IMG/VR virus record: IMGVR_UViG_2718218435_000004
DNA length: 37,062 bases
Direction: 5' to 3' (one strand)
DNA from: a virus
Taxonomy: Duplodnaviria; Heunggongvirae; Uroviricota; Caudoviricetes
Numbering within the stretch: the first letter of the stretch is position 1; each line of letters opens with the position of its first letter. Shown here piece by piece: positions 1 through 37,062 of this stretch. A model generated the notes under the pieces. The model was not told where the DNA came from and searched no databases. It worked only from the letters and a program-made list of their open reading frames with translations. The position numbers were made by a program, and so were the translations under genes.

Positions 1-903
1 TTATGAAAGCATAGACCGTTTACCCTCCCTGGGTACGACGGAACAGGGGTCCTGATGGATAATCACATCCGATCCCGGAAAACGCCGTAAAATAGCCTGC
101 TCTACCTGATCCGCCACCATATGTGCCTGAACCAAAGGCAGAGAGTCTTCCATTTCCAAATGAATCTGAATAAAGCGGGTCGGCCCTGACTGCCGCGTGC
201 GAAGATCGTGAGCGCCGCTAACACCCGGCCAGGAAGTCACGATATCAATAATTTCTTGCCGTTCTTCATCAGGCAATGCGCGATCCAGTAATGACTGTAC
301 CGCCTCATATCCCATGCGTAACGCGCTATATAAAATATAGATGCCGATTCCCAATGCAAACAGAGCATCGGCGCGATGCCAGCCGTACCAGGACAACCCC
401 AGCGCCAGCAGAATTGCACCGTTCATCATAACATCAGACTGGTAATGTAGCATATCAGCCCGCACCGCCTGGCTTTGCGTCCGGCGCACCACCCAACGCT
501 GAAACGAGACAAGGATAATCGTACAAATTAGCGCCACAATTGTCACGATAACCCCGACGCCTGGATCTGTCATCGGTGTTGGAGATATCAGATGTTGAAT
601 ACCCGTCAAAAACAGGAATAGTGCTGAACCGGAGATAAACATACTTTGCGCCAGCGCCGCGAGGGACTCAGCTTTACCGTGACCAAACGAGTGATTATCG
701 TCGGCAGGTTGCAGGGAATATCGCACCACCAGTAAATTCGTCAACGACGCGCCGATATCCACCAGCGAATCCACCAGCGCGGCGAGAATACTCACCGACC
801 CGGTATACCACCATGCAAAAATTTTAATCAGCAATAGCAGTGAAGCCATCGCCGTTGCAGCAATCGCCGCCCGACTGACCAGCCGTCCATAAGATTGATT
901 CAT
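1..903 (-). CDS. fieF: Host cation-diffusion-facilitator ferrous iron/zinc efflux pump FieF (YiiP)
   Basis: ORF 1..945 (-) contains [37 protein letters not shown]..., recognised as enterobacterial FieF (300 aa). Start placed at the internal Met (MNQSYG), 14 codons inside the ORF-track start. Confidence 0.9.
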
Positions 904-984
904 AAATACTCCCGCTATCAACTGACGGTAGTATAACGGAAGCAAATCATCTGCAATGCATTAAGCAGTAGGCAAATTGAGGAT

Positions 985-1011
985 AAAAAAAACCCCCACA
1001 TCATGTGGGGG
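985..1011 (-). terminator. Rho-independent terminator-like hairpin in the host/prophage junction
   Basis: GC stem cccccaca / tgtggggg (about 993-1011) next to an A8 run on the + strand, i.e. a U-tract after the stem when read on the - strand. Confidence 0.4.
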
Positions 1012-1109
1012 AAGACAGGGATGGTGTCACAAAAAATCACCTAACCTACTGATATAAATGGATTTATATAAACCACTGTCCACATAGCGTCCACATCGAC
1101 CATAAATAA

Positions 1110-1136
1110 AGCCCCTCAACTGAGGGGCTATTTTTG
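1110..1136. terminator. Hairpin immediately 3' of ogr, possible bidirectional terminator
   Basis: Stem gcccctc / gaggggc with a 4-nt loop, followed by tattttt on the + strand and flanked by a T-rich stretch on the - strand; sits directly after the ogr stop. Confidence 0.4.
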
Positions 1137-1139
1137 TGA

Positions 1140-1358
1140 TCACATCCACATAATTTGCTGCCCTGACGGCAACGGGTGCGGCCTCACGGCGTGGACTTCT
1201 CCCGGCTTCACGATGTATCTCTGTACCGACTCATAAGTGATGAACGTGGCGCTGCAATTCACGTTCTGGCACTGGTGATAACGCTCTTTTGTCGTGTCAG
1301 TGATATAGCGGCTTGTACGCGCATGTGCGGCATGCTGGCATAAAGGACAATGAAACAT
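1140..1358 (-). CDS. ogr: Late-gene transcription activator Ogr (zinc-finger)
   Basis: Translation MFHCPLCQHAAHARTSRYITDTTKERYHQCQNVNCSATFITYESVQRYIVKPGEVHAVRPHPLPSGQQIMWM matches P2 Ogr (72 aa, C-x2-C...C-x4-C). Start at the internal ATG of the ORF-track ORF. Confidence 0.9.
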   Translation of the reverse strand: MFHCPLCQHAAHARTSRYITDTTKERYHQCQNVNCSATFITYESVQRYIVKPGEVHAVRPHPLPSGQQIMWM

Positions 1359-27247: not shown

Positions 27248-28252
27248 ATGGATCAGAGAATCCTTGAACATGAAGCGATTAAACAACTTAGCAAAAAATC
27301 AGTGCGCAAGTTGTTTGGGGTTCACGATATCCCTAGAGCCAGTTCACCATTTCGCTATCCAGGAGGTAAAGACAAACTTGCCTCATTTCTCGCTATTTTT
27401 CTTGTACATAATAAGTTAAATGGTGGCCGGTTTATTGAACCATTTTGTGGTGGTGCTGGAGCATCACTTTCTTTACTATTGGGCGGATATGTAAAAGAGA
27501 TCCACTTAAATGATAAGAACTATGCTTTATTTTGCTTTTGGGATCAATTAATTAACAACACTGATAATTTATTGGATATGGTATATCAGAATATACCATG
27601 CATTGACGATTGGCATAAACAAAAGAAAATCTACCAAACGAGTATTATTGACCCCAATAAATACACCAAACTCGAATATGGTTTTAGTGTATTCTATTTA
27701 AACAGAACAAACAGATCTGGAGTACTAAGCGCTGGGCCAATTGGCGGTTTAGACCAGTCTGGAAAATATAAAATTGATTGCAGATACACTGTAAGTACGC
27801 TTATTAAAAAGCTCGAAAAAATAGCTAGCATGCGTGACTCTATATTCGTTTATAACGAGCACTGCATTGATTTTTTAAAACGTTTCAATAGTAAAGATAA
27901 CTATGATCATGATTTCGTTTATCTAGATCCTCCTTATGTTAAAGAGGGGCGCAACATTTATTCAAAAAACTTTTGCTTCGATGACACTCAGCATCGCGAG
28001 CTTAAGGATTACATAGCTGGTTATGCAAATCGTTGGTTAATTTCTTATGACGATCACCCTCTAGTGCATGAATTATACTCAAAACATGGCACAAGAGCCG
28101 TTGAGATAAGTTACGCCATGAATAAAGCAAAAGTTGGAAAAGAATTAATGATAGCGGATTCTCGCTTAAGAATGCCAGAATCATTATTCTCTGTTGATAT
28201 ATTAAAATCTGGCGAAATACCAATGAAGAAAAAAGTAGTTAAAATGGCCTGA
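27248..28252 (+). CDS. Dam-like (D12-class) N6-adenine DNA methyltransferase
   Basis: 334 aa with FRYPGGK near the N-terminus, the SAM-binding motif EPFCGGAGAS and the catalytic DPPY motif; AT-rich; lies where P2 has old/tin. Confidence 0.85.
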   Translation: MDQRILEHEAIKQLSKKSVRKLFGVHDIPRASSPFRYPGGKDKLASFLAIFLVHNKLNGGRFIEPFCGGAGASLSLLLGGYVKEIHLNDKNYALFCFWDQLINNTDNLLDMVYQNIPCIDDWHKQKKIYQTSIIDPNKYTKLEYGFSVFYLNRTNRSGVLSAGPIGGLDQSGKYKIDCRYTVSTLIKKLEKIASMRDSIFVYNEHCIDFLKRFNSKDNYDHDFVYLDPPYVKEGRNIYSKNFCFDDTQHRELKDYIAGYANRWLISYDDHPLVHELYSKHGTRAVEISYAMNKAKVGKELMIADSRLRMPESLFSVDILKSGEIPMKKKVVKMA

Positions 28253-28254
28253 TA

Positions 28255-29274
28255 TCAGGCCGCTTCTGCTTGTAATGTTTCAGTTGTAGAAATCACATAT
28301 TGTGAAATATCATTTATTTCATCTTTCCGTTCTATTAGTAGCCCTGGATCTGATACCAACAGTTCTAACCCTTTCTTAAAGCAAGTAGGTAACCGGAGTC
28401 TATGCAATACTGCGCCAAACTCCTCTGCGACTAGTGAAATATGGTCTTTCTTTATAGATTCATCATCACTCTCAAAATCAAAAGGTATAACAATAGCATC
28501 AGTTATTCTATATATTCTTTGCGCTAACCAGTGATTTTGTATGTTTGCAATATCCTCTTTTATTGCTTTTGAACGCCAATCTTGGCCGCTAGCAACTTGA
28601 GCAAAATAAATTTGCTTGCTTCCCGGATATGTATCGCGGGGATTATTATCTTTCCATGCAATCACATCAATACCAGCATCTTTATGAGGTCGTGTTTGCA
28701 AATAACGATTAACATCCTCAAATGGTCTAACCCTTCCTTCACCAATTAAATCAACAGCTCTAGTAAGAGCATCATAAAACTTTGAACTATCAGGTCTTGG
28801 CCAGCCGAATGAAATACTATGCCCCTGAACATAGCCAGCTAATGCAATTGTTGCAGCAATCTGTAATAAGTCTCGGTGTTTTCCTGTCGGCAAATCTACC
28901 CCATTAAATAGCCGTGATGCCGACATATGAGAAAAATACAAACAATATAAGTATATATGCTGATCTACGGTAAGTAATTCCAATGTTTCCTTTGCCAATT
29001 CCAAACATTGCGTTTCTTCATTAAAAATAAAAGGATAGCTATCCCCGAGTATATCCTTTCTTTGTTGATATTGTTCTAATAGTCTTTGTATTTCATTTTC
29101 GACTTCAGCATCTTCTTCGCCTATATCGGAAGATGTAAATGAATCTAAGTTCTCTAGAATATTCCTTAGTTCTGAAATTCGCATTGTAAAATATACATTT
29201 GATAAGCAAGATAACTCAAGCCAATCCAATTTGACTTGAATATGATGACTCTCTGGATAAGGTTGCAACTGCAT
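28255..29274 (-). CDS. Hypothetical 339-aa protein, second gene of a two-gene operon; possible nuclease-like partner (tentative)
   Basis: ATG 3 nt after the stop of the upstream ParB-like gene with a GAGGAA Shine-Dalgarno; AT-rich; convergent with the MTase, stops 2 nt apart. Segment HKDAGIDVIAWKD...IYFAQVASGQ loosely resembles Mrr-type PD-(D/E)xK motifs, but this is not established. Confidence 0.7.
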   Translation of the reverse strand: MQLQPYPESHHIQVKLDWLELSCLSNVYFTMRISELRNILENLDSFTSSDIGEEDAEVENEIQRLLEQYQQRKDILGDSYPFIFNEETQCLELAKETLELLTVDQHIYLYCLYFSHMSASRLFNGVDLPTGKHRDLLQIAATIALAGYVQGHSISFGWPRPDSSKFYDALTRAVDLIGEGRVRPFEDVNRYLQTRPHKDAGIDVIAWKDNNPRDTYPGSKQIYFAQVASGQDWRSKAIKEDIANIQNHWLAQRIYRITDAIVIPFDFESDDESIKKDHISLVAEEFGAVLHRLRLPTCFKKGLELLVSDPGLLIERKDEINDISQYVISTTETLQAEAA

Positions 29275-29277
29275 CTC

Positions 29278-30405
29278 TTATTCCTCAATGCTCTGCAATT
29301 GATATTGAACCTTAGATACCTTTCTCTTAAACTGTTCGATGTAGTTCTTCGTCGTATCGTCTAACGAATCTGTTCTATCTAAAACAGAAGATATAGTATC
29401 AAGTTGTTTGTTTATTTCCAAAAAAGCATCTTTAATGTGTTGAAGAGGGTCACCCGCTTGCTTATATAATTCAGAAAGACTTTCAACTCCAGACTTAAAA
29501 GCTTCATATGAAGCCTCATTCGCTAAAACCTCACCAAAATATTTCAAATCAGGATTTTGCGAAGAGATCAACGATGCTCTTTTATCTTTTTTATACCCAT
29601 AAAGACCGATCAGAACATCTCTGAGTTTATCAAGATTCCTTTGCGGTACAGGATTCTTTCTGAGTGTAATATTCCAATCTTTCTCCAATCCTAAAAAATC
29701 TTTATATTCAGTTCTATTCAAAGCCGTATACAAATGAGAAAAAGAAAATTTTGGTGACATTCTGTCGACATGAATATCATATATTTCTTGAGTTTTAGCC
29801 TGTTCAAGAACAAACATAGCACTAACTATAGAACGAACAGTATTGTTACTGTCACCAAGTTTTTTTGTTATATGTTCAATAGTGAGACCGTTATCTCTTT
29901 CACTTATAAACCATTTATATGCGAACTGTGCTTTAGCAAACGAATCCCATTTATGGGGACCATTAACATGTTTAAATCCAATAAATGAACGAGCTTCTGA
30001 CTCATCATTAACAAGATAAACAGCAACTTCCTTGAGGCTATCCAAAACCCAAGAATCTATATTTTTTGGAACGACAACTCGACATTTTTGTGCCAAGCCC
30101 GGTTCAGTAAGCAATTTGATGGCAGCTAAACGACGATTACCTTCTAAGACGACATACTTATCATCTTTTTTCATGACAATTAAAGGTTCAATCGACATAT
30201 ATCCATTTTCAGAAATGGATTTAATCAATTCTTCTAAATCTGCAGTATCAGATAATGCTTTAACCAACTCATATGAGTCAGCATTATCATTAAAGCTTTT
30301 CCCGTTATAAAGCCTTGGATTTCTAGCATCCAAGATTAACTCATCCGGGGAAATCATCTGTGTTTTGAGCGGTTCTAAGACAGTTTTTGGCATTTTATGC
30401 ACCAT
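29278..30405 (-). CDS. ParB/Srx N-terminal-domain protein (ParB-like nuclease/NTPase fold), first gene of the two-gene operon
   Basis: 375 aa; NPR box near the N-terminus (LILDARNPRLY) and SIEPLIVMKKDDKYVVLEGNRRLAAIKLL resembling the ParB GxRR arginine motif; AT-rich. The true start may be the first ATG or the ATG four codons downstream. Confidence 0.7.
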   Translation of the reverse strand: MVHKMPKTVLEPLKTQMISPDELILDARNPRLYNGKSFNDNADSYELVKALSDTADLEELIKSISENGYMSIEPLIVMKKDDKYVVLEGNRRLAAIKLLTEPGLAQKCRVVVPKNIDSWVLDSLKEVAVYLVNDESEARSFIGFKHVNGPHKWDSFAKAQFAYKWFISERDNGLTIEHITKKLGDSNNTVRSIVSAMFVLEQAKTQEIYDIHVDRMSPKFSFSHLYTALNRTEYKDFLGLEKDWNITLRKNPVPQRNLDKLRDVLIGLYGYKKDKRASLISSQNPDLKYFGEVLANEASYEAFKSGVESLSELYKQAGDPLQHIKDAFLEINKQLDTISSVLDRTDSLDDTTKNYIEQFKRKVSKVQYQLQSIEE

Positions 30406-30607: not shown

Positions 30608-30811
30608 TCATCTGCGTGGTGGTGGCGTAACTCTTGATTGACCGATATGGTTAAACCGCCCGTAATTATCCCGGACTATTTCGGCACACCCGACCAACTC
30701 GTCGGGCGTCAGATTTTCGTTGACCATAATCCGCTGTAAACGCTGAACAATAGCCATCAGCTTGATATTTTTAGTTTTATGGTGCGGTATCTCGCCTGGT
30801 ATTCTGTGCAT
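30608..30811 (-). CDS. Small hypothetical protein (about 67 aa) translationally coupled to the upstream gene
   Basis: ATG overlaps the stop of the 30811..31266 gene (TAATG); no recognisable motif. Confidence 0.35.
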   Translation of the reverse strand: MHRIPGEIPHHKTKNIKLMAIVQRLQRIMVNENLTPDELVGCAEIVRDNYGRFNHIGQSRVTPPPRR

Positions 30812-31266
30812 TATCCAAGCCACCCGTTTTGCTGTGCACGCTCCATCTGTTCATCTGAATAGTTCCATGCTCCATCCGTGGCAACCATTGCCCCGCCAGA
30901 CATCCCCGTCTCTGGTTCATACATAACAGCAAGGCCGAGCTGATGCATAATTTCATGATTAATTCTGAATACCAGGCCACGCTCACTAAGTTCTTTCCAG
31001 TTCACAATCTCATATGCGCCTGTATTAAGCAGCTCAATACTTAGCAAGACATAGTCTTCCAGCCAGTCTGACAGGTCAGTAACATCTGTTATCCGGGCTT
31101 CAACCTTTCGCCCCGTATACACACCCTGCCCCCATTCATGCAAAATCAACGTGTCCCCGCGCTCATAATTACGGTCATTTTTCCGAAACTCTGCGCGTTT
31201 CTTTCCTTCCAGCACAAGGTCAAAATATTTTGCGTGCAGCTTTATCTCGTGAATTTTTGCCATCAT
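30811..31266 (-). CDS. Hypothetical protein with an N-terminal ASCH/DUF3850-like (PUA-fold) domain, immediately downstream of A
   Basis: Start ATGATG overlaps the A stop; N-terminal MAKIHEIKLHAKYFDLVLEGKKRAEFRKNDRNYERGDTLILHEW resembles ASCH/DUF3850 domains; C-terminal half unassigned. Confidence 0.6.
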   Translation of the reverse strand: MMAKIHEIKLHAKYFDLVLEGKKRAEFRKNDRNYERGDTLILHEWGQGVYTGRKVEARITDVTDLSDWLEDYVLLSIELLNTGAYEIVNWKELSERGLVFRINHEIMHQLGLAVMYEPETGMSGGAMVATDGAWNYSDEQMERAQQNGWLG

Positions 31267-33548
31267 GTCCACTCCATTACTGTTGAGAATCCCGGCCACT
31301 CATCAGCGACCGGATACGTGAATTTTTTCCCGTCATAATTTACAGTCGCACCACGCGCCAGCGCCTCAAGCTCCCATCGCTGCGGCCTGATACCGTTCTG
31401 AGCAAGGTCAACGCGGATACGGGTGATTTGCAATCGTTCAGACCTGGTCAGTCTGGCAGATGGTGCAATTTCATGCGGTTTTAACATGCTTCCGTTTCTT
31501 TGCTGACGGTTTGGTCTTCTCAGGCCGTGTTTTAATGCGCCCCTGAGCGCCCTCACGACCTCCGGGTCATTCCATTCGATAACACCATCATCAACCAGAT
31601 TTAGCACTGCTGCAGCGTGCTCAGAAGGTGTGGGAGCCGGTAACGAAGCATCACTACCGGTGAGCTTTCCACAGTTATTGACAGGACTCCGAGGCGCGGC
31701 GATGCCGCTTTTTAAAGTCAAAGGCTCAACGACCGGAACTTTCGGCACAATGCGCCAGTCCGTCGTTCTGGTGATATGAATATGACGCGCGCCGAGATGC
31801 GGCGCGTAAATACCGACCACTCTCTCGACTTCTTCCTCGTACTCGTTAACGTCACTCGACGGGCTACGGGCAACCCTGACAGTCTGACAATCGCGCGGGA
31901 CATTTGCCCCACCCTGCGCGCTGATATACAACGCAAAATCACCACTGTCTGCGGCAGCGCGAGCAGCCTCGACGCGTTCGTCAAACTCATCAGCAATACT
32001 GACGCCGCGAGGTAATTTGCGTAGTTCACGGTAAGCCCCCATTGTCGGCAGGCCAACCGTTTTAAATTGCGGAATGCGCCACGTTGACGCCCATGCGGTA
32101 ACAGCCGCGGCAGTGTCTTTCAGCGGCCTGCCGGTATCGTTATCGAGCTGACCATCCAGTGCATAGCCGTCGATGTTTTTTGAAATGTATTTCGCGATAT
32201 ACCCCGCAGCACCGCCCCGATTAAGGTGTTTTGCCTGAAAACGGTTTCGCGCGGCTCCTCTTTCGTCGCCATCCTCTTTGAGCGCATAGCGACGCATGAT
32301 TTCGATAATCTGGTTACGCTGGCGCGAATTACAAAAAAGCATCATATGCCAGTGCGGCGTTCCGTCGTGGTGTGGCTCGACGACACGCAAACCGTAGACC
32401 TGTAAATCATTATCCTTGAATGCCGTGCGCATCAGGCTCCAGATACGGCAGAGATAACGCTGCGCATCCTTTGGATTAAATGCCTCATCGTTCCAGCCGT
32501 GATTAAGCTGCACGGTTTTACTTTCGCCTTTTCCTACCTGACGTGTCGGGTGATACTTTGACGGCGCGGTCAGCGTGATAAACATCCCCACATCACCCTC
32601 TGCAGCGGCGTAACGCTCAATACCGGCAATGGTGTTCATCAGCTCCATCCGGCGAATTTCAGGATTAGAAATACTGCCCATCACCTTACTGATAAGGTCG
32701 ATGCGCTCGCCGGTTTCCCTGTTTTCAAGGTCACACGATTTAAGAAATTCCAGATTTGCCTGGCGGCGCGCACGCACATCACGAATGGCATGTTTACTGG
32801 CATAAGGTGAACGGTCTTTATTGACCTCCCCGACAGCAATCAGTAACGCCTCATGCCAGCGCATACGCTGGCCTTTAAGCTGACTAATCCACCACTCATC
32901 GTTAAACAGGCGGGCAATGGCAGAATATGCCTGCCTCGTGGTCATCTGCCCTTTACGGTATTTTCTCCAGTACAGCGGGGAAATATTGAAAGCACGTGCA
33001 GCGCCAGCAACATGACCATACAGGTGAGCCTGCGCCTCATCCGTAAACAGCGATTCTTTTTCGCCATGGGCATCCACCCAGGCATCGCAGAGTTCCTCAT
33101 ACATCATGAAAAGCTGCGATGAGATACGGGCGGCAAACTTTTTCAGCTCCTTGTCATTCATTCCCGGCAGGCGCGCATAGTGGTCACGCTCTGCCAGAAA
33201 CAGCAACGACGCGTCGGTGTTCATTTCATGGCGCTGATTCACACGCTCAATGCGCGGCCATAAACGACGCTGAAAAGTGGATGTGAGGAAATAAAACCCG
33301 TGCACCGGGCTTTTATTGCGCCGGATGTAGTCATAGCGTGAAGTAAACAGCGAGCGCAAAAAGTAAGGCAGGCGGTTAATCGTGGATAAAACACCTTGCA
33401 CCTGACGCATCTCATCACGTGTAAGGGGTCTTTCGCGCCCGACGGCCTCGCGTGGCGCGTTCCATGCATAAGCACCGGTAAACATCTTACCGGTGCCTGC
33501 GGCAAATGCTGACGGAGGGACAAAACGCCCGGAGGCTTTAACGGCCAT
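31263..33548 (-). CDS. A: Replication initiation protein A (rolling-circle nicking endonuclease)
   Basis: Internal start MAVKASGRFVPPSAFAAGTGKMFTGAYAWNAPREAV... gives 761 aa, matching P2 gpA. Confidence 0.9.
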   Translation of the reverse strand: MAVKASGRFVPPSAFAAGTGKMFTGAYAWNAPREAVGRERPLTRDEMRQVQGVLSTINRLPYFLRSLFTSRYDYIRRNKSPVHGFYFLTSTFQRRLWPRIERVNQRHEMNTDASLLFLAERDHYARLPGMNDKELKKFAARISSQLFMMYEELCDAWVDAHGEKESLFTDEAQAHLYGHVAGAARAFNISPLYWRKYRKGQMTTRQAYSAIARLFNDEWWISQLKGQRMRWHEALLIAVGEVNKDRSPYASKHAIRDVRARRQANLEFLKSCDLENRETGERIDLISKVMGSISNPEIRRMELMNTIAGIERYAAAEGDVGMFITLTAPSKYHPTRQVGKGESKTVQLNHGWNDEAFNPKDAQRYLCRIWSLMRTAFKDNDLQVYGLRVVEPHHDGTPHWHMMLFCNSRQRNQIIEIMRRYALKEDGDERGAARNRFQAKHLNRGGAAGYIAKYISKNIDGYALDGQLDNDTGRPLKDTAAAVTAWASTWRIPQFKTVGLPTMGAYRELRKLPRGVSIADEFDERVEAARAAADSGDFALYISAQGGANVPRDCQTVRVARSPSSDVNEYEEEVERVVGIYAPHLGARHIHITRTTDWRIVPKVPVVEPLTLKSGIAAPRSPVNNCGKLTGSDASLPAPTPSEHAAAVLNLVDDGVIEWNDPEVVRALRGALKHGLRRPNRQQRNGSMLKPHEIAPSARLTRSERLQITRIRVDLAQNGIRPQRWELEALARGATVNYDGKKFTYPVADEWPGFSTVMEWT

Positions 33549-35124: not shown

Positions 35125-35318
35125 TTCCAGCCCCTCCGGCTTTTCAGAAAGGTCAGAGCCTTTTTTAACGGACTCTGTTTTTTGGTGCGGATAATGATTC
35201 CCTTACGCCCCTTACCGTGGGTGATGGTGAAGTCAATCGCCCTGGGGCTTTCGTTACGCAGTAACTGAGCAATACAACGCGGTTCACTCATAATCACAAC
35301 CCCATCCACAAAAGCCAT
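35121..35318 (-). CDS. Small early ORF (P2 orf78-like position) between cox and B
   Basis: 65-aa ORF whose ATG lies in the cox 3' end and whose stop overlaps the B start (ATGA); basic C-terminus. Confidence 0.45.
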   Translation of the reverse strand: MAFVDGVVIMSEPRCIAQLLRNESPRAIDFTITHGKGRKGIIIRTKKQSPLKKALTFLKSRRGWK

Positions 35319-35566
35319 GCATCACGCTGTTCAACTGGTCGGTTATAAAACGCCTCTCGTACAGCGCGATTAAACTCTGGAATGAAAACCCACTTCTCAC
35401 CGACACGAGCGTTCGGCTTACTTGGATCACGAAGCTCAATAACTGGCAACTTATTCTCTTTTACCATCTTGACTACAGCCGTTTCTGGCTTACCAAGTAA
35501 CTCTGCAAACTTAACCGTATGTACCGCATCAATCGGGTACTGAATCACATAGTCATTGACTTCCAT
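35294..35566 (-). CDS. cox: Cox (excisionase / early-operon regulator)
   Basis: 90 aa, first gene of the early operon divergent from C; C-terminal ...RDAWLLWMGL resembles P2-family Cox. Confidence 0.75.
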   Translation of the reverse strand: MEVNDYVIQYPIDAVHTVKFAELLGKPETAVVKMVKENKLPVIELRDPSKPNARVGEKWVFIPEFNRAVREAFYNRPVEQRDAWLLWMGL

Positions 35567-36081: not shown

Positions 36082-37062
36082 ATGTCAATTAAGAAGCTCG
36101 ATGATGGACGCTATGAAGTGGACATTAGACCTCGCGGTCGCGACGGAAAACGCATCCGCAGGAAATTTGAAAGAAAAGCTGAGGCTGTAGCATTTGAGCG
36201 ATACACAATCGCCTACGCCAGCCAGAAAGAATGGGCAGGTCAGCGAGCAGATCGCAGAACTTTGAGTGAGTTGCTGAACATCTGGTGGAAATATCACGGG
36301 CAAAACCACGAGCATGGAACAAAAGAGTTTAATCATCTGCTCAAAACCATCAGCGGCATAGGTGATATACCAGTGAGCCGGATGAGCAAAAGAGCTTTGA
36401 TGGATTATCGTTCCATGCGACTACGTGATGGTATCAGTGCCGCAACGATAAACCGTGACATGTACCGATTATCCGGCATGTTCACAAAATTAATTCAATT
36501 GGATGAATTTTCCGGGCAACACCCAATTCACGGACTGCCGCCACTGGCGGAGGCCAACCCTGAAATGACGTTCCTGGAAAAAGCAGAAATCGAAAAACTG
36601 TTAAATGTTTTGGATGGTGATGACTTACTTGTCGCACTTTTATGTCTGAGCACTGGAGGAAGATGGACGGAAGTTGCCACGCTAAAACCAGCACAGATTA
36701 CAAATTGCAGGGTTACCTTCCTGAAAACCAAAAACGGTAAAAAGCGAACCGTGCCGATTTCTGAGGAACTGGAGAAAAAAGTTAAAGAGGAGGCCAGCGC
36801 TAAATTATTCAAAGTTGATTATGAGAAGTTTTGCGGGATTTTACGCAGAGTGAAGCCAGATATACCACCCAATCAGGCAACCCACATCCTGCGGCATACA
36901 TTCGCAAGCCATTTCATGATGAATGGGGGCAATATAATCGCACTGCAACAGATTCTGGGACATGCGAGCATTCAGCAGACGATGGCCTATGCGCACCTTG
37001 CGCCTGACTACCTGCAAAATGCCGTCGCGCTGAATCCTCTAAAAGGCGGAGTGACGTTATAA
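36082..37062 (+). CDS. int: Tyrosine integrase
   Basis: Internal ATG with a GAGGG Shine-Dalgarno gives MSIKKLDDGRYEVDIRPRGRDGKRIRRKF..., collinear with the P2 Int N-terminus (MAIKKLDDGRYEVD...); C-terminal catalytic region with R...HxLRH...Y (ATHILRHTFASHF, MAYAHL). Stop codon at the window end. Confidence 0.9.
   Translation: MSIKKLDDGRYEVDIRPRGRDGKRIRRKFERKAEAVAFERYTIAYASQKEWAGQRADRRTLSELLNIWWKYHGQNHEHGTKEFNHLLKTISGIGDIPVSRMSKRALMDYRSMRLRDGISAATINRDMYRLSGMFTKLIQLDEFSGQHPIHGLPPLAEANPEMTFLEKAEIEKLLNVLDGDDLLVALLCLSTGGRWTEVATLKPAQITNCRVTFLKTKNGKKRTVPISEELEKKVKEEASAKLFKVDYEKFCGILRRVKPDIPPNQATHILRHTFASHFMMNGGNIIALQQILGHASIQQTMAYAHLAPDYLQNAVALNPLKGGVTL

Follow-up and report, generated by a model that had tools for sequence, protein, structure and literature searches.

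A WΦ-type attachment junction between fieF and ogr overlaps the predicted 3' end of the small RNA CpxQ

Introduction

Between a host cation-efflux gene, fieF, and a phage late-gene activator, ogr, the DNA analysed here (a stretch of 37,062 nucleotides, which we call the window) holds a spacer of 236 bp with two hairpins, at positions 904-1139, and the question it raises is where in this spacer the bacterial chromosome gives way to the phage, and through which sequence the two were joined. A first-pass annotation made from the sequence alone had proposed that fieF ends at 903 and ogr starts at 1140, which the open reading frames, the K-12 annotation and Pfam bear out, and that a host/prophage junction, presumably attR, lies in between, with its core left undelimited. 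We keep the name attR for the ogr side, following the P2 convention.

Part of the answer is already in the literature. Table 2 of the E. coli W genome paper has an entry 'cpxP-fieF: Wphi1 (P2)' (PMC3032704), and the WΦ Int/att pair is in use in integration vectors (PMC12765450). A further paper gives the WΦ integration site, in its Table 1, as MG1655 4104392, previously identified and common to L-413C (PMC3448106). E. coli W itself appears in both our attR and our attL match lists, at positions about 32.7 kb apart. The junction is an ordinary feature, of a kind and at a site already published, and when we looked for literature linking the WΦ attB, CpxQ or cpxP to phage attachment, the E. coli W table entry was the only item found. 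The primary work on WΦ att is reportedly that of Nilsson in 2004 and Karlsson in 2006.

Results

The host/prophage boundary and the attachment core

When window positions 800-1200 were compared by BLAST with 5,426 complete E. coli genomes, matches were found in 5,425. Prophage-free genomes, K-12 and thousands more, align only with query positions 1-229, that is, with window 800-1028, which puts the boundary within 904-1139, where the first-pass annotation had expected it. In K-12 the order at this locus is fieF, a spacer of 148 bp, cpxP, and then cpxR and cpxA, and in the empty site cpxP lies 24 nt past the core. The fieF of the window has a CDS of 903 nt and is 99.8% identical in DNA to that of E. 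coli.

The other junction, attL, lies past the right edge of the window, as had been supposed, because the window stops at the last base of the int stop codon, and we read it in relatives. Strain 14EC020 has a shorter prophage with an int end 100% identical to that of the window, and its attL consists of int, an arm of 115 bp, a copy identical to 982-1028 and the end of cpxP; in APEC E19035, ES4 and LD27-1, attL likewise repeats 982-1028. These four strains, close relatives whose int equals that of the window or nearly so, carry the core as a direct repeat at both prophage ends; the E. coli genome closest to the window has 98% identity over 96%. Since the part common to attL and attR is 982-1028 and the match of the empty sites ends at 1028, the core is 47 bp long; to the left of 982 the window departs from both attL and attP in the alignment. 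The direct repeat sought beyond the int end is present, and the core can now be set to 982-1028 (Table 1); the feature is the published WΦ attachment site. Beyond position 37062 of the window we would expect a P arm of about 115 bp with two copies of TGTCCACA, the 47-bp core, TATGGCAAGGAAAACAGGG and the end of cpxP.

Table 1. Features of the fieF-ogr junction and of the integration genes, in window coordinates.
Feature	Position	Strand	Basis or remark
fieF, host CDF cation-efflux transporter, complete	1-903	-	ORF; annotated as fieF in K-12 and others
Host-only DNA, fieF upstream, distal part of the native cpxP-fieF spacer	904-981		Collinear with empty sites
att core, 47 bp, GATAAAAAAAACCCCCACATCATGTGGGGGAAGACAGGGATGGTGTC	982-1028		Identity among attR, attL, attB and WΦ attP
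cpxP/CpxQ Rho-independent terminator, orphan duplicate just upstream of fieF	985-1011	-	Terminator scan, folds
Polymorphic loop base, T in the window, G in K-12-type hosts	1001		Host-side crossover marker in attR
Candidate Int core-type sites GACA-N7-TGTC	1014-1028		Possible 7-bp overlap GGGATGG at 1018-1024, proposed from the sequence
P' arm of WΦ-type attP, core to ogr stop codon	1029-1139		Collinear with WΦ attP
IHF-like site TATCAGTAGGTTA, 1 mismatch from WATCAANNNNTTR	1042-1054	-	Pattern scan, consensus match only
AT-rich palindrome ATATAAAT-GG-ATTTATAT	1052-1069		Between core and arm sites
Arm-type Int sites, tandem, 11 bp apart, TGTGGACA and TGTGGACG	1084-1077 and 1095-1088	-	Match to P2-group consensus
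ogr terminator hairpin, bidirectional in form	1110-1129	-	Folds, terminator scan; same sequence in WΦ
ogr, late-gene activator, zinc finger	1140-1358	-	Pfam Ogr_Delta 1e-21
cox, recombination directionality factor and Pc repressor	35294-35566	-	Pfam Phage_Cox 9e-24; Cox in relatives
int, P2-family tyrosine integrase of WΦ specificity, 326 aa	36082-37062	+	Pfam Int_N 3e-28, Phage_integrase 4e-20

Both hairpins of the spacer had been noticed in the first reading, and both exist. The first was taken for a - strand terminator at about 985-1011, and the terminator scan and homology with cpxP agree: the A8 is at 985-992, the stem-loop at 993-1011, and the - strand reads CCCCCACAUGAUGUGGGGG followed by U8. 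The second, described as a hairpin directly after ogr at about 1110-1136, is there, with its limits to be corrected, the stem ending at 1129 and the T-run at 1135, and its form is terminator-like on both strands. Against shuffled sequences, the fold of the second hairpin has z-scores of -4.7 (- strand) and -6.7 (+ strand), and the region 700-1500 holds 3 terminator-like sites compared with 0.6 +/- 0.7 in shuffles. The first hairpin with its flanks is no outlier in this comparison (z = -1.7), so its reality rests on homology, as the conserved terminator of cpxP; its predicted fold is the same in the native K-12 CpxQ and in the CpxQ of attL. The suggestion that it might be the 3' end of the host gene beside the insertion was correct, for it is the terminator of cpxP and the 3' end of CpxQ.

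The phage arms and the integration system

The int gene of the window has 99.6% DNA identity with its counterpart in coliphage WΦ and 99.8-100% with those of several other sequenced Peduoviruses; in relatives it is annotated as a CDS of 981 nt, and cox and the C repressor gene adjoin it. By Pfam and by this identity with WΦ int, the enzyme encoded beside the site is a P2-group tyrosine integrase of the heterobivalent class. The attP of WΦ, which is the stretch between its int and ogr, equals the phage arm of attL plus the 47-bp core plus window 1029-1139. The last segment is missing from empty sites and differs from WΦ at 4 positions, and 982-1139 as a whole is collinear with WΦ attP, so that the junction is made of host DNA, core and one attP arm. 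The P' arm ends at the ogr stop codon (1140-1142), and relatives carry an ogrK annotation at the equivalent position.

P2-group integrases have an arm consensus tgTGGaCa (PMC3448106), and in our pattern scan at least two direct repeats of this type lie on each side of the core, the two copies in the P arm, read in the attL of relatives, being exact and in the same orientation as the P' pair. The pattern scan also returned a perfect IHF consensus spanning the border between P arm and core, at attL and outside the window. Within the P' arm, 1042-1054 and 1052-1069 are possible accessory-factor sites, for the palindrome either Cox or IHF. Cox boxes are similar at 5 of 9 bp, too weak for reliable detection by common k-mers with the Pe-Pc region, and the IHF and Cox sites of this locus are putative, placed by analogy with P2.

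Two further repeats were seen. The P arm of the relatives' attL (locus L004, about 2333-2357; attP 70-94) has GTTTTCTTA twice in direct orientation, 16 bp apart, with the Int arm sites on one side and the IHF consensus on the other, and this repeat is a candidate site for an accessory protein. A 9-bp inverted repeat, TCACAAAAA/TTTTTGTGA, at 1027-1035 and 1131-1139, brackets the P' arm and could be due to chance.

Taken together, we are highly confident that a P2-family prophage of WΦ specificity, complete in appearance, has its attR at window 904-1139 and is inserted in the known attB between cpxP and fieF. The WΦ-type Int would recombine attP with the host site through the 47-bp core that the two have in common, IHF aiding integration and Cox directing excision if the analogy with P2 holds. 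One product is the attR seen here, in which host DNA upstream of fieF is followed by the core and by a P' arm carrying two Int sites and the terminator of ogr; the other, the attL outside the window, would have the P arm, the core, the 5' seed of CpxQ and cpxP. The junction could also be a fossil, left by a defective prophage that has lost excision, which we consider unlikely. P2-like prophages have often decayed, otherwise nothing specific speaks in favour, and some relatives carry IS insertions, such as ES4 with an IS150 near ogr and an ISEc12 in gene A; however, the reading frames of int, C, cox, A, ogr, D and the tail genes are uninterrupted in the window, its core and arm sites are undamaged and differ little from those of the viable WΦ, and a related lineage with the same core occurs in one strain both integrated and as a circle of 32 kb.

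The position of the crossover

The assignment to attR of a prophage with WΦ specificity left room for a more precise placement of the exchange, since base 1001, in the loop of the first hairpin, is polymorphic among empty sites, being G in K-12 and T in others, and is T in the attP of WΦ and in 24 of the 24 species-representative genomes with the core. We searched for the G allele with junction-specific queries of 97 nt carrying G, under an E-value limit that shuts out empty sites. At attR junctions it was found exactly in at least 31 of 789 genomes, which are phylogenetically non-independent lysogens, at least two independent integration events being documented; at attL junctions it was found in none of 687 (439 and 248, for two P-arm haplotypes). 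ES4 and LD27-1, which have different P-arm haplotypes, were read directly, and in each of them attR carries G and attL carries T. The presence of G at attR only means that attR took base 1001 from the host and attL took it from the phage, with the exchange to the right of this base. In a second integrase lineage that uses this site, identity with the host extends only to 1026, which leaves 1002-1026 as the common crossover interval. These alleles place strand exchange within 1002-1026/1028, on the right-hand side of the hairpin loop, and the natural G/T heterozygosity maps the crossover to one side of the terminator loop with no experiment needed. GACA-N7-TGTC (1014-1028) falls inside the mapped interval, and we propose it as candidate core-type sites around a 7-bp overlap; any exact cleavage positions would be provisional.

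The hairpin itself offers another geometry, in which the overlap would be centred on the terminator loop and the halves of the perfect palindrome, CCCCCACAT/ATGTGGGGG (993-1011), would be the inverted core-type Int sites. The cores of tyrosine recombinases usually have inverted binding sites flanking an overlap of 6-8 bp, and no inverted repeat in the core is more obvious than this hairpin; yet a G/T heterology at 1001 should then hinder recombination or segregate either allele at both junctions, and G was seen only at attR (at least 31 genomes, against 0 of 687 attL junctions), with ES4 and LD27-1 in agreement. On this allele asymmetry we rejected the hairpin arms as Int core sites, and regard a loop-centred overlap as quite improbable.

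The core as the 3' end of CpxQ

The hairpin that lies to the left of the proposed exchange belongs to CpxQ, a small RNA reportedly described by Chao and Vogel and by Grabowicz et al., both in 2016. It is given as about 60 nt, nearly the whole 3'UTR of cpxP, with its 3' end at the terminator (PMC9438474), and as Hfq-dependent and cut from that 3'UTR by RNase E (PMC9438474, PMC4817254). Its 5' end acts as the seed, U7 pairing with nhaB and C11G abolishing the regulation of cfa (PMC10250213, PMC6755755). Past the stop codon of cpxP, the K-12 spacer reads ACCCUG UUUUCCUUGCCAUAGACACCAUCCCUGUCUUCCCCCACAUGCUGUGGGGGUUUUUUUU on the - strand, and U7 and C11 both agree with a CpxQ 5' end at UUUUCCUUGCC, from which the seed UUUUCCUUGCCAUA was read. 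On this basis, which combines position, the U7/C11 numbering of the papers and our reading of the sequence, the core on the - strand appears to be CpxQ nt 15-58 plus 3 nt past the U-tract, with the seed, nt 1-14, just outside. Rfam at its gathering threshold gave zero matches in the window, K-12, attL and attP loci; its silence even on the K-12 locus suggests that the library is without a usable CpxQ model.

The two ends of the prophage differ in what they would retain of CpxQ. At attL, the RNA has the same predicted fold as the native one (-17.4 kcal/mol), and UUUUCCUUGCCAUA is present. In the window the copy has the terminator hairpin and U-tract at its 3' end, equal to those of K-12 save for the loop base; on the - strand, phage DNA stands in front of it in place of cpxP, and UUUUCCUUGCCAUA is absent. 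Compared with CpxQ, then, it has the terminator hairpin and U8 and is without cpxP, the RNase E site and seed nt 1-14; it appears from the sequence to be a duplicate fragment, the functional copy being presumably at attL. Because the phage brings the 3' end of CpxQ with it, host seed and core together restore both the cpxP terminator and the complete CpxQ sequence at attL, and attR is left with a seedless, truncated copy whose terminator stands between the - strand genes of the prophage and fieF. The retained terminator may insulate fieF, with CpxQ function probably unchanged. By analogy with relatives, the long core could be there in order to rebuild this RNA gene.

A role of its own for the orphan fragment, at attR and in free phage DNA, can also be imagined, if it were expressed, for example by read-through from ogr, as an Hfq-binding RNA, seedless or with a new seed, and modulated the Cpx response or titrated Hfq. 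The fragment has a complete terminator/U8 module typical of Hfq-binding small RNAs, and it lies some 100 nt downstream of ogr, on the strand of that gene; the phage sequence 5' of it, GGUGAUUUUUUGU, is A/U-rich, as are RNase E sites, and the core recurs in at least 62 phage records. However, our scan found no sigma-70-like promoter on the - strand between ogr and the core, the strong terminator at 1110-1129 intervenes there, nt 1-14, the known seed of CpxQ, are absent, and the length of the core is well enough explained by the rebuilding of the cpxP terminator and CpxQ. Moreover, the phage sequence abutting the core varies among the WΦ-type, L003-type and Kosakonia lineages, and this lack of conservation argues against a seed encoded by the phage, and hence against a function of the orphan RNA, so that we think expression of this sort very improbable. 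Bolder still is the idea that the copy in attP and attR is transcribed as an Hfq-bound, seedless look-alike of CpxQ and that the unusually long core of 47 bp is under selection both as an RNA and as a recombination site. If true, the look-alike would damp or rewire the small-RNA response to inner-membrane stress during infection or lysogeny, and we give it hardly any credence. We retain the reading in which the core serves recombination and leaves a complete CpxQ at attL.

Use of the site by other phages

A 100% match to the core was found in at least 62 phage records, WΦ among them, from Escherichia, Salmonella, Yersinia and Enterobacter phages. Among the 5,426 complete E. coli genomes the site is occupied by WΦ-type elements in 789 and by the second lineage in 41 (about 15%). 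The Int of the second lineage is 67% identical in protein, its arm repeats are GTCTACA/GACTACA and its common core is 45 bp. In species-representative genomes, the exact 45-mer occurs as attB (fieF-core-cpxP) in Escherichia species and Salmonella diarizonae, and as attL (int-core-cpxP) in Yokenella, Citrobacter, Kluyvera and Escherichia.

Strain 2020N21-246-1 has one and the same P2-like element, of the second lineage, in two copies, one integrated at the CpxQ site and one in a circle of 32,330 bp recorded as 'plasmid unnamed3', which is presumably the excised phage genome (records L003, NZ_JBQJRQ010000002.1, and NZ_CM125665.1 4989766-4989862). In Kosakonia oryziphila (locus L013, NZ_FMBC01000035.1) int, core (at about 966 of the oriented locus) and ogr are adjacent in a contig of 54.6 kb, and this attP configuration suggests a tandem or unintegrated P2-like element. 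Two records labelled Enterobacter hormaechei (loci L024 and L025, CP169086.1 and CP170191.1) have a FieF and a CpxP that match, at 100% protein identity, the FieF of the window and the CpxP of K-12; with flanks the same as those of K-12, they look mislabelled or contaminated.

Prophage cargo

The last 10 kb of the window are covered to at least 80% in only 15 of the 5,426 genomes. Between 27248 and 30405 the window has two genes similar to the defence pair PD-Lambda-5: one encodes a D12 N6-adenine methyltransferase (27248-28252, + strand; PD-Lambda-5_B, 7e-94), the other a ParB_N-like protein (29278-30405, - strand; PD-Lambda-5_A, 5e-22, over the N-terminal ~160 aa only). The ORF of 339 aa between them (28255-29274, - strand) had no match in Pfam or PADLOC. 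An ORF of 162 aa with ASCH/DUF3850 and DUF7415 domains (30811-31299) adjoins the replication gene A.

Relatives carry extra ORFs between the Int sites of the P' arm and ogr (L008 2812-3453; L009 1892-2299; L003 3209-3856), in a slot that is empty in the window (about 1097-1110). In ES4 the slot holds a PD-T4-10_B-like protein (1e-34) and the IS150; ETEC6333 and the 32-kb circular element have one slot ORF each, with no family match.

Discussion

The junction itself is of little weight, and what we add is the overlap with CpxQ, the orphan fragment left at attR and the placement of the crossover on one side of the terminator loop. Engineered integration with pIT5 vectors uses the WΦ attB too, and this site appears to lie inside the CpxQ small RNA; for those who integrate there, or who annotate the small RNAs of lysogens, the CpxQ of attL would be partly phage-derived and that of attR a truncated duplicate. 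A small RNA derived from a 3'UTR would in this way join cyaR and rybB among the targets of P2-type phages, the principle itself not being new.

The nearest known system is WΦ (Peduovirus Wphi, AY135739 / NC_005056), with which the prophage of the window shares int type, core, host site and arm consensus. It is larger (about 36 kb, WΦ having 32.7 kb) and differs by four substitutions in the P' arm and in its cargo, the PD-Lambda-5-like methylase/ParB-like pair. With P2 it shares the layout int, P arm, core, P' arm and ogr, the arm consensus and Cox as directionality factor, whereas core sequence and host locus differ; the core of P2 is shorter, at 27 bp. The attB of P2, by cyaR, and that of the P2-type prophages at rybB also put the target at the 3' end of a small RNA gene, but the target here is the processed 3'UTR of an mRNA and no stand-alone small RNA gene. 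Both cyaR RNA and rybB ncRNA are listed as sites of P2-type prophages in Table 2 of the E. coli W paper (PMC3032704). In relatives that target tRNA genes, long cores have been explained by the rebuilding of the RNA gene (PMC3448106). Phages of the 186 type and Fels-2/SopEΦ, in tRNA and tmRNA genes, likewise carry the 3' part of an RNA gene that is rebuilt on insertion; they do so with a 186-type arm consensus and at targets of tRNA-like structure, whereas what would be rebuilt at the cpxP-fieF site is the terminator of an Hfq-type small RNA.
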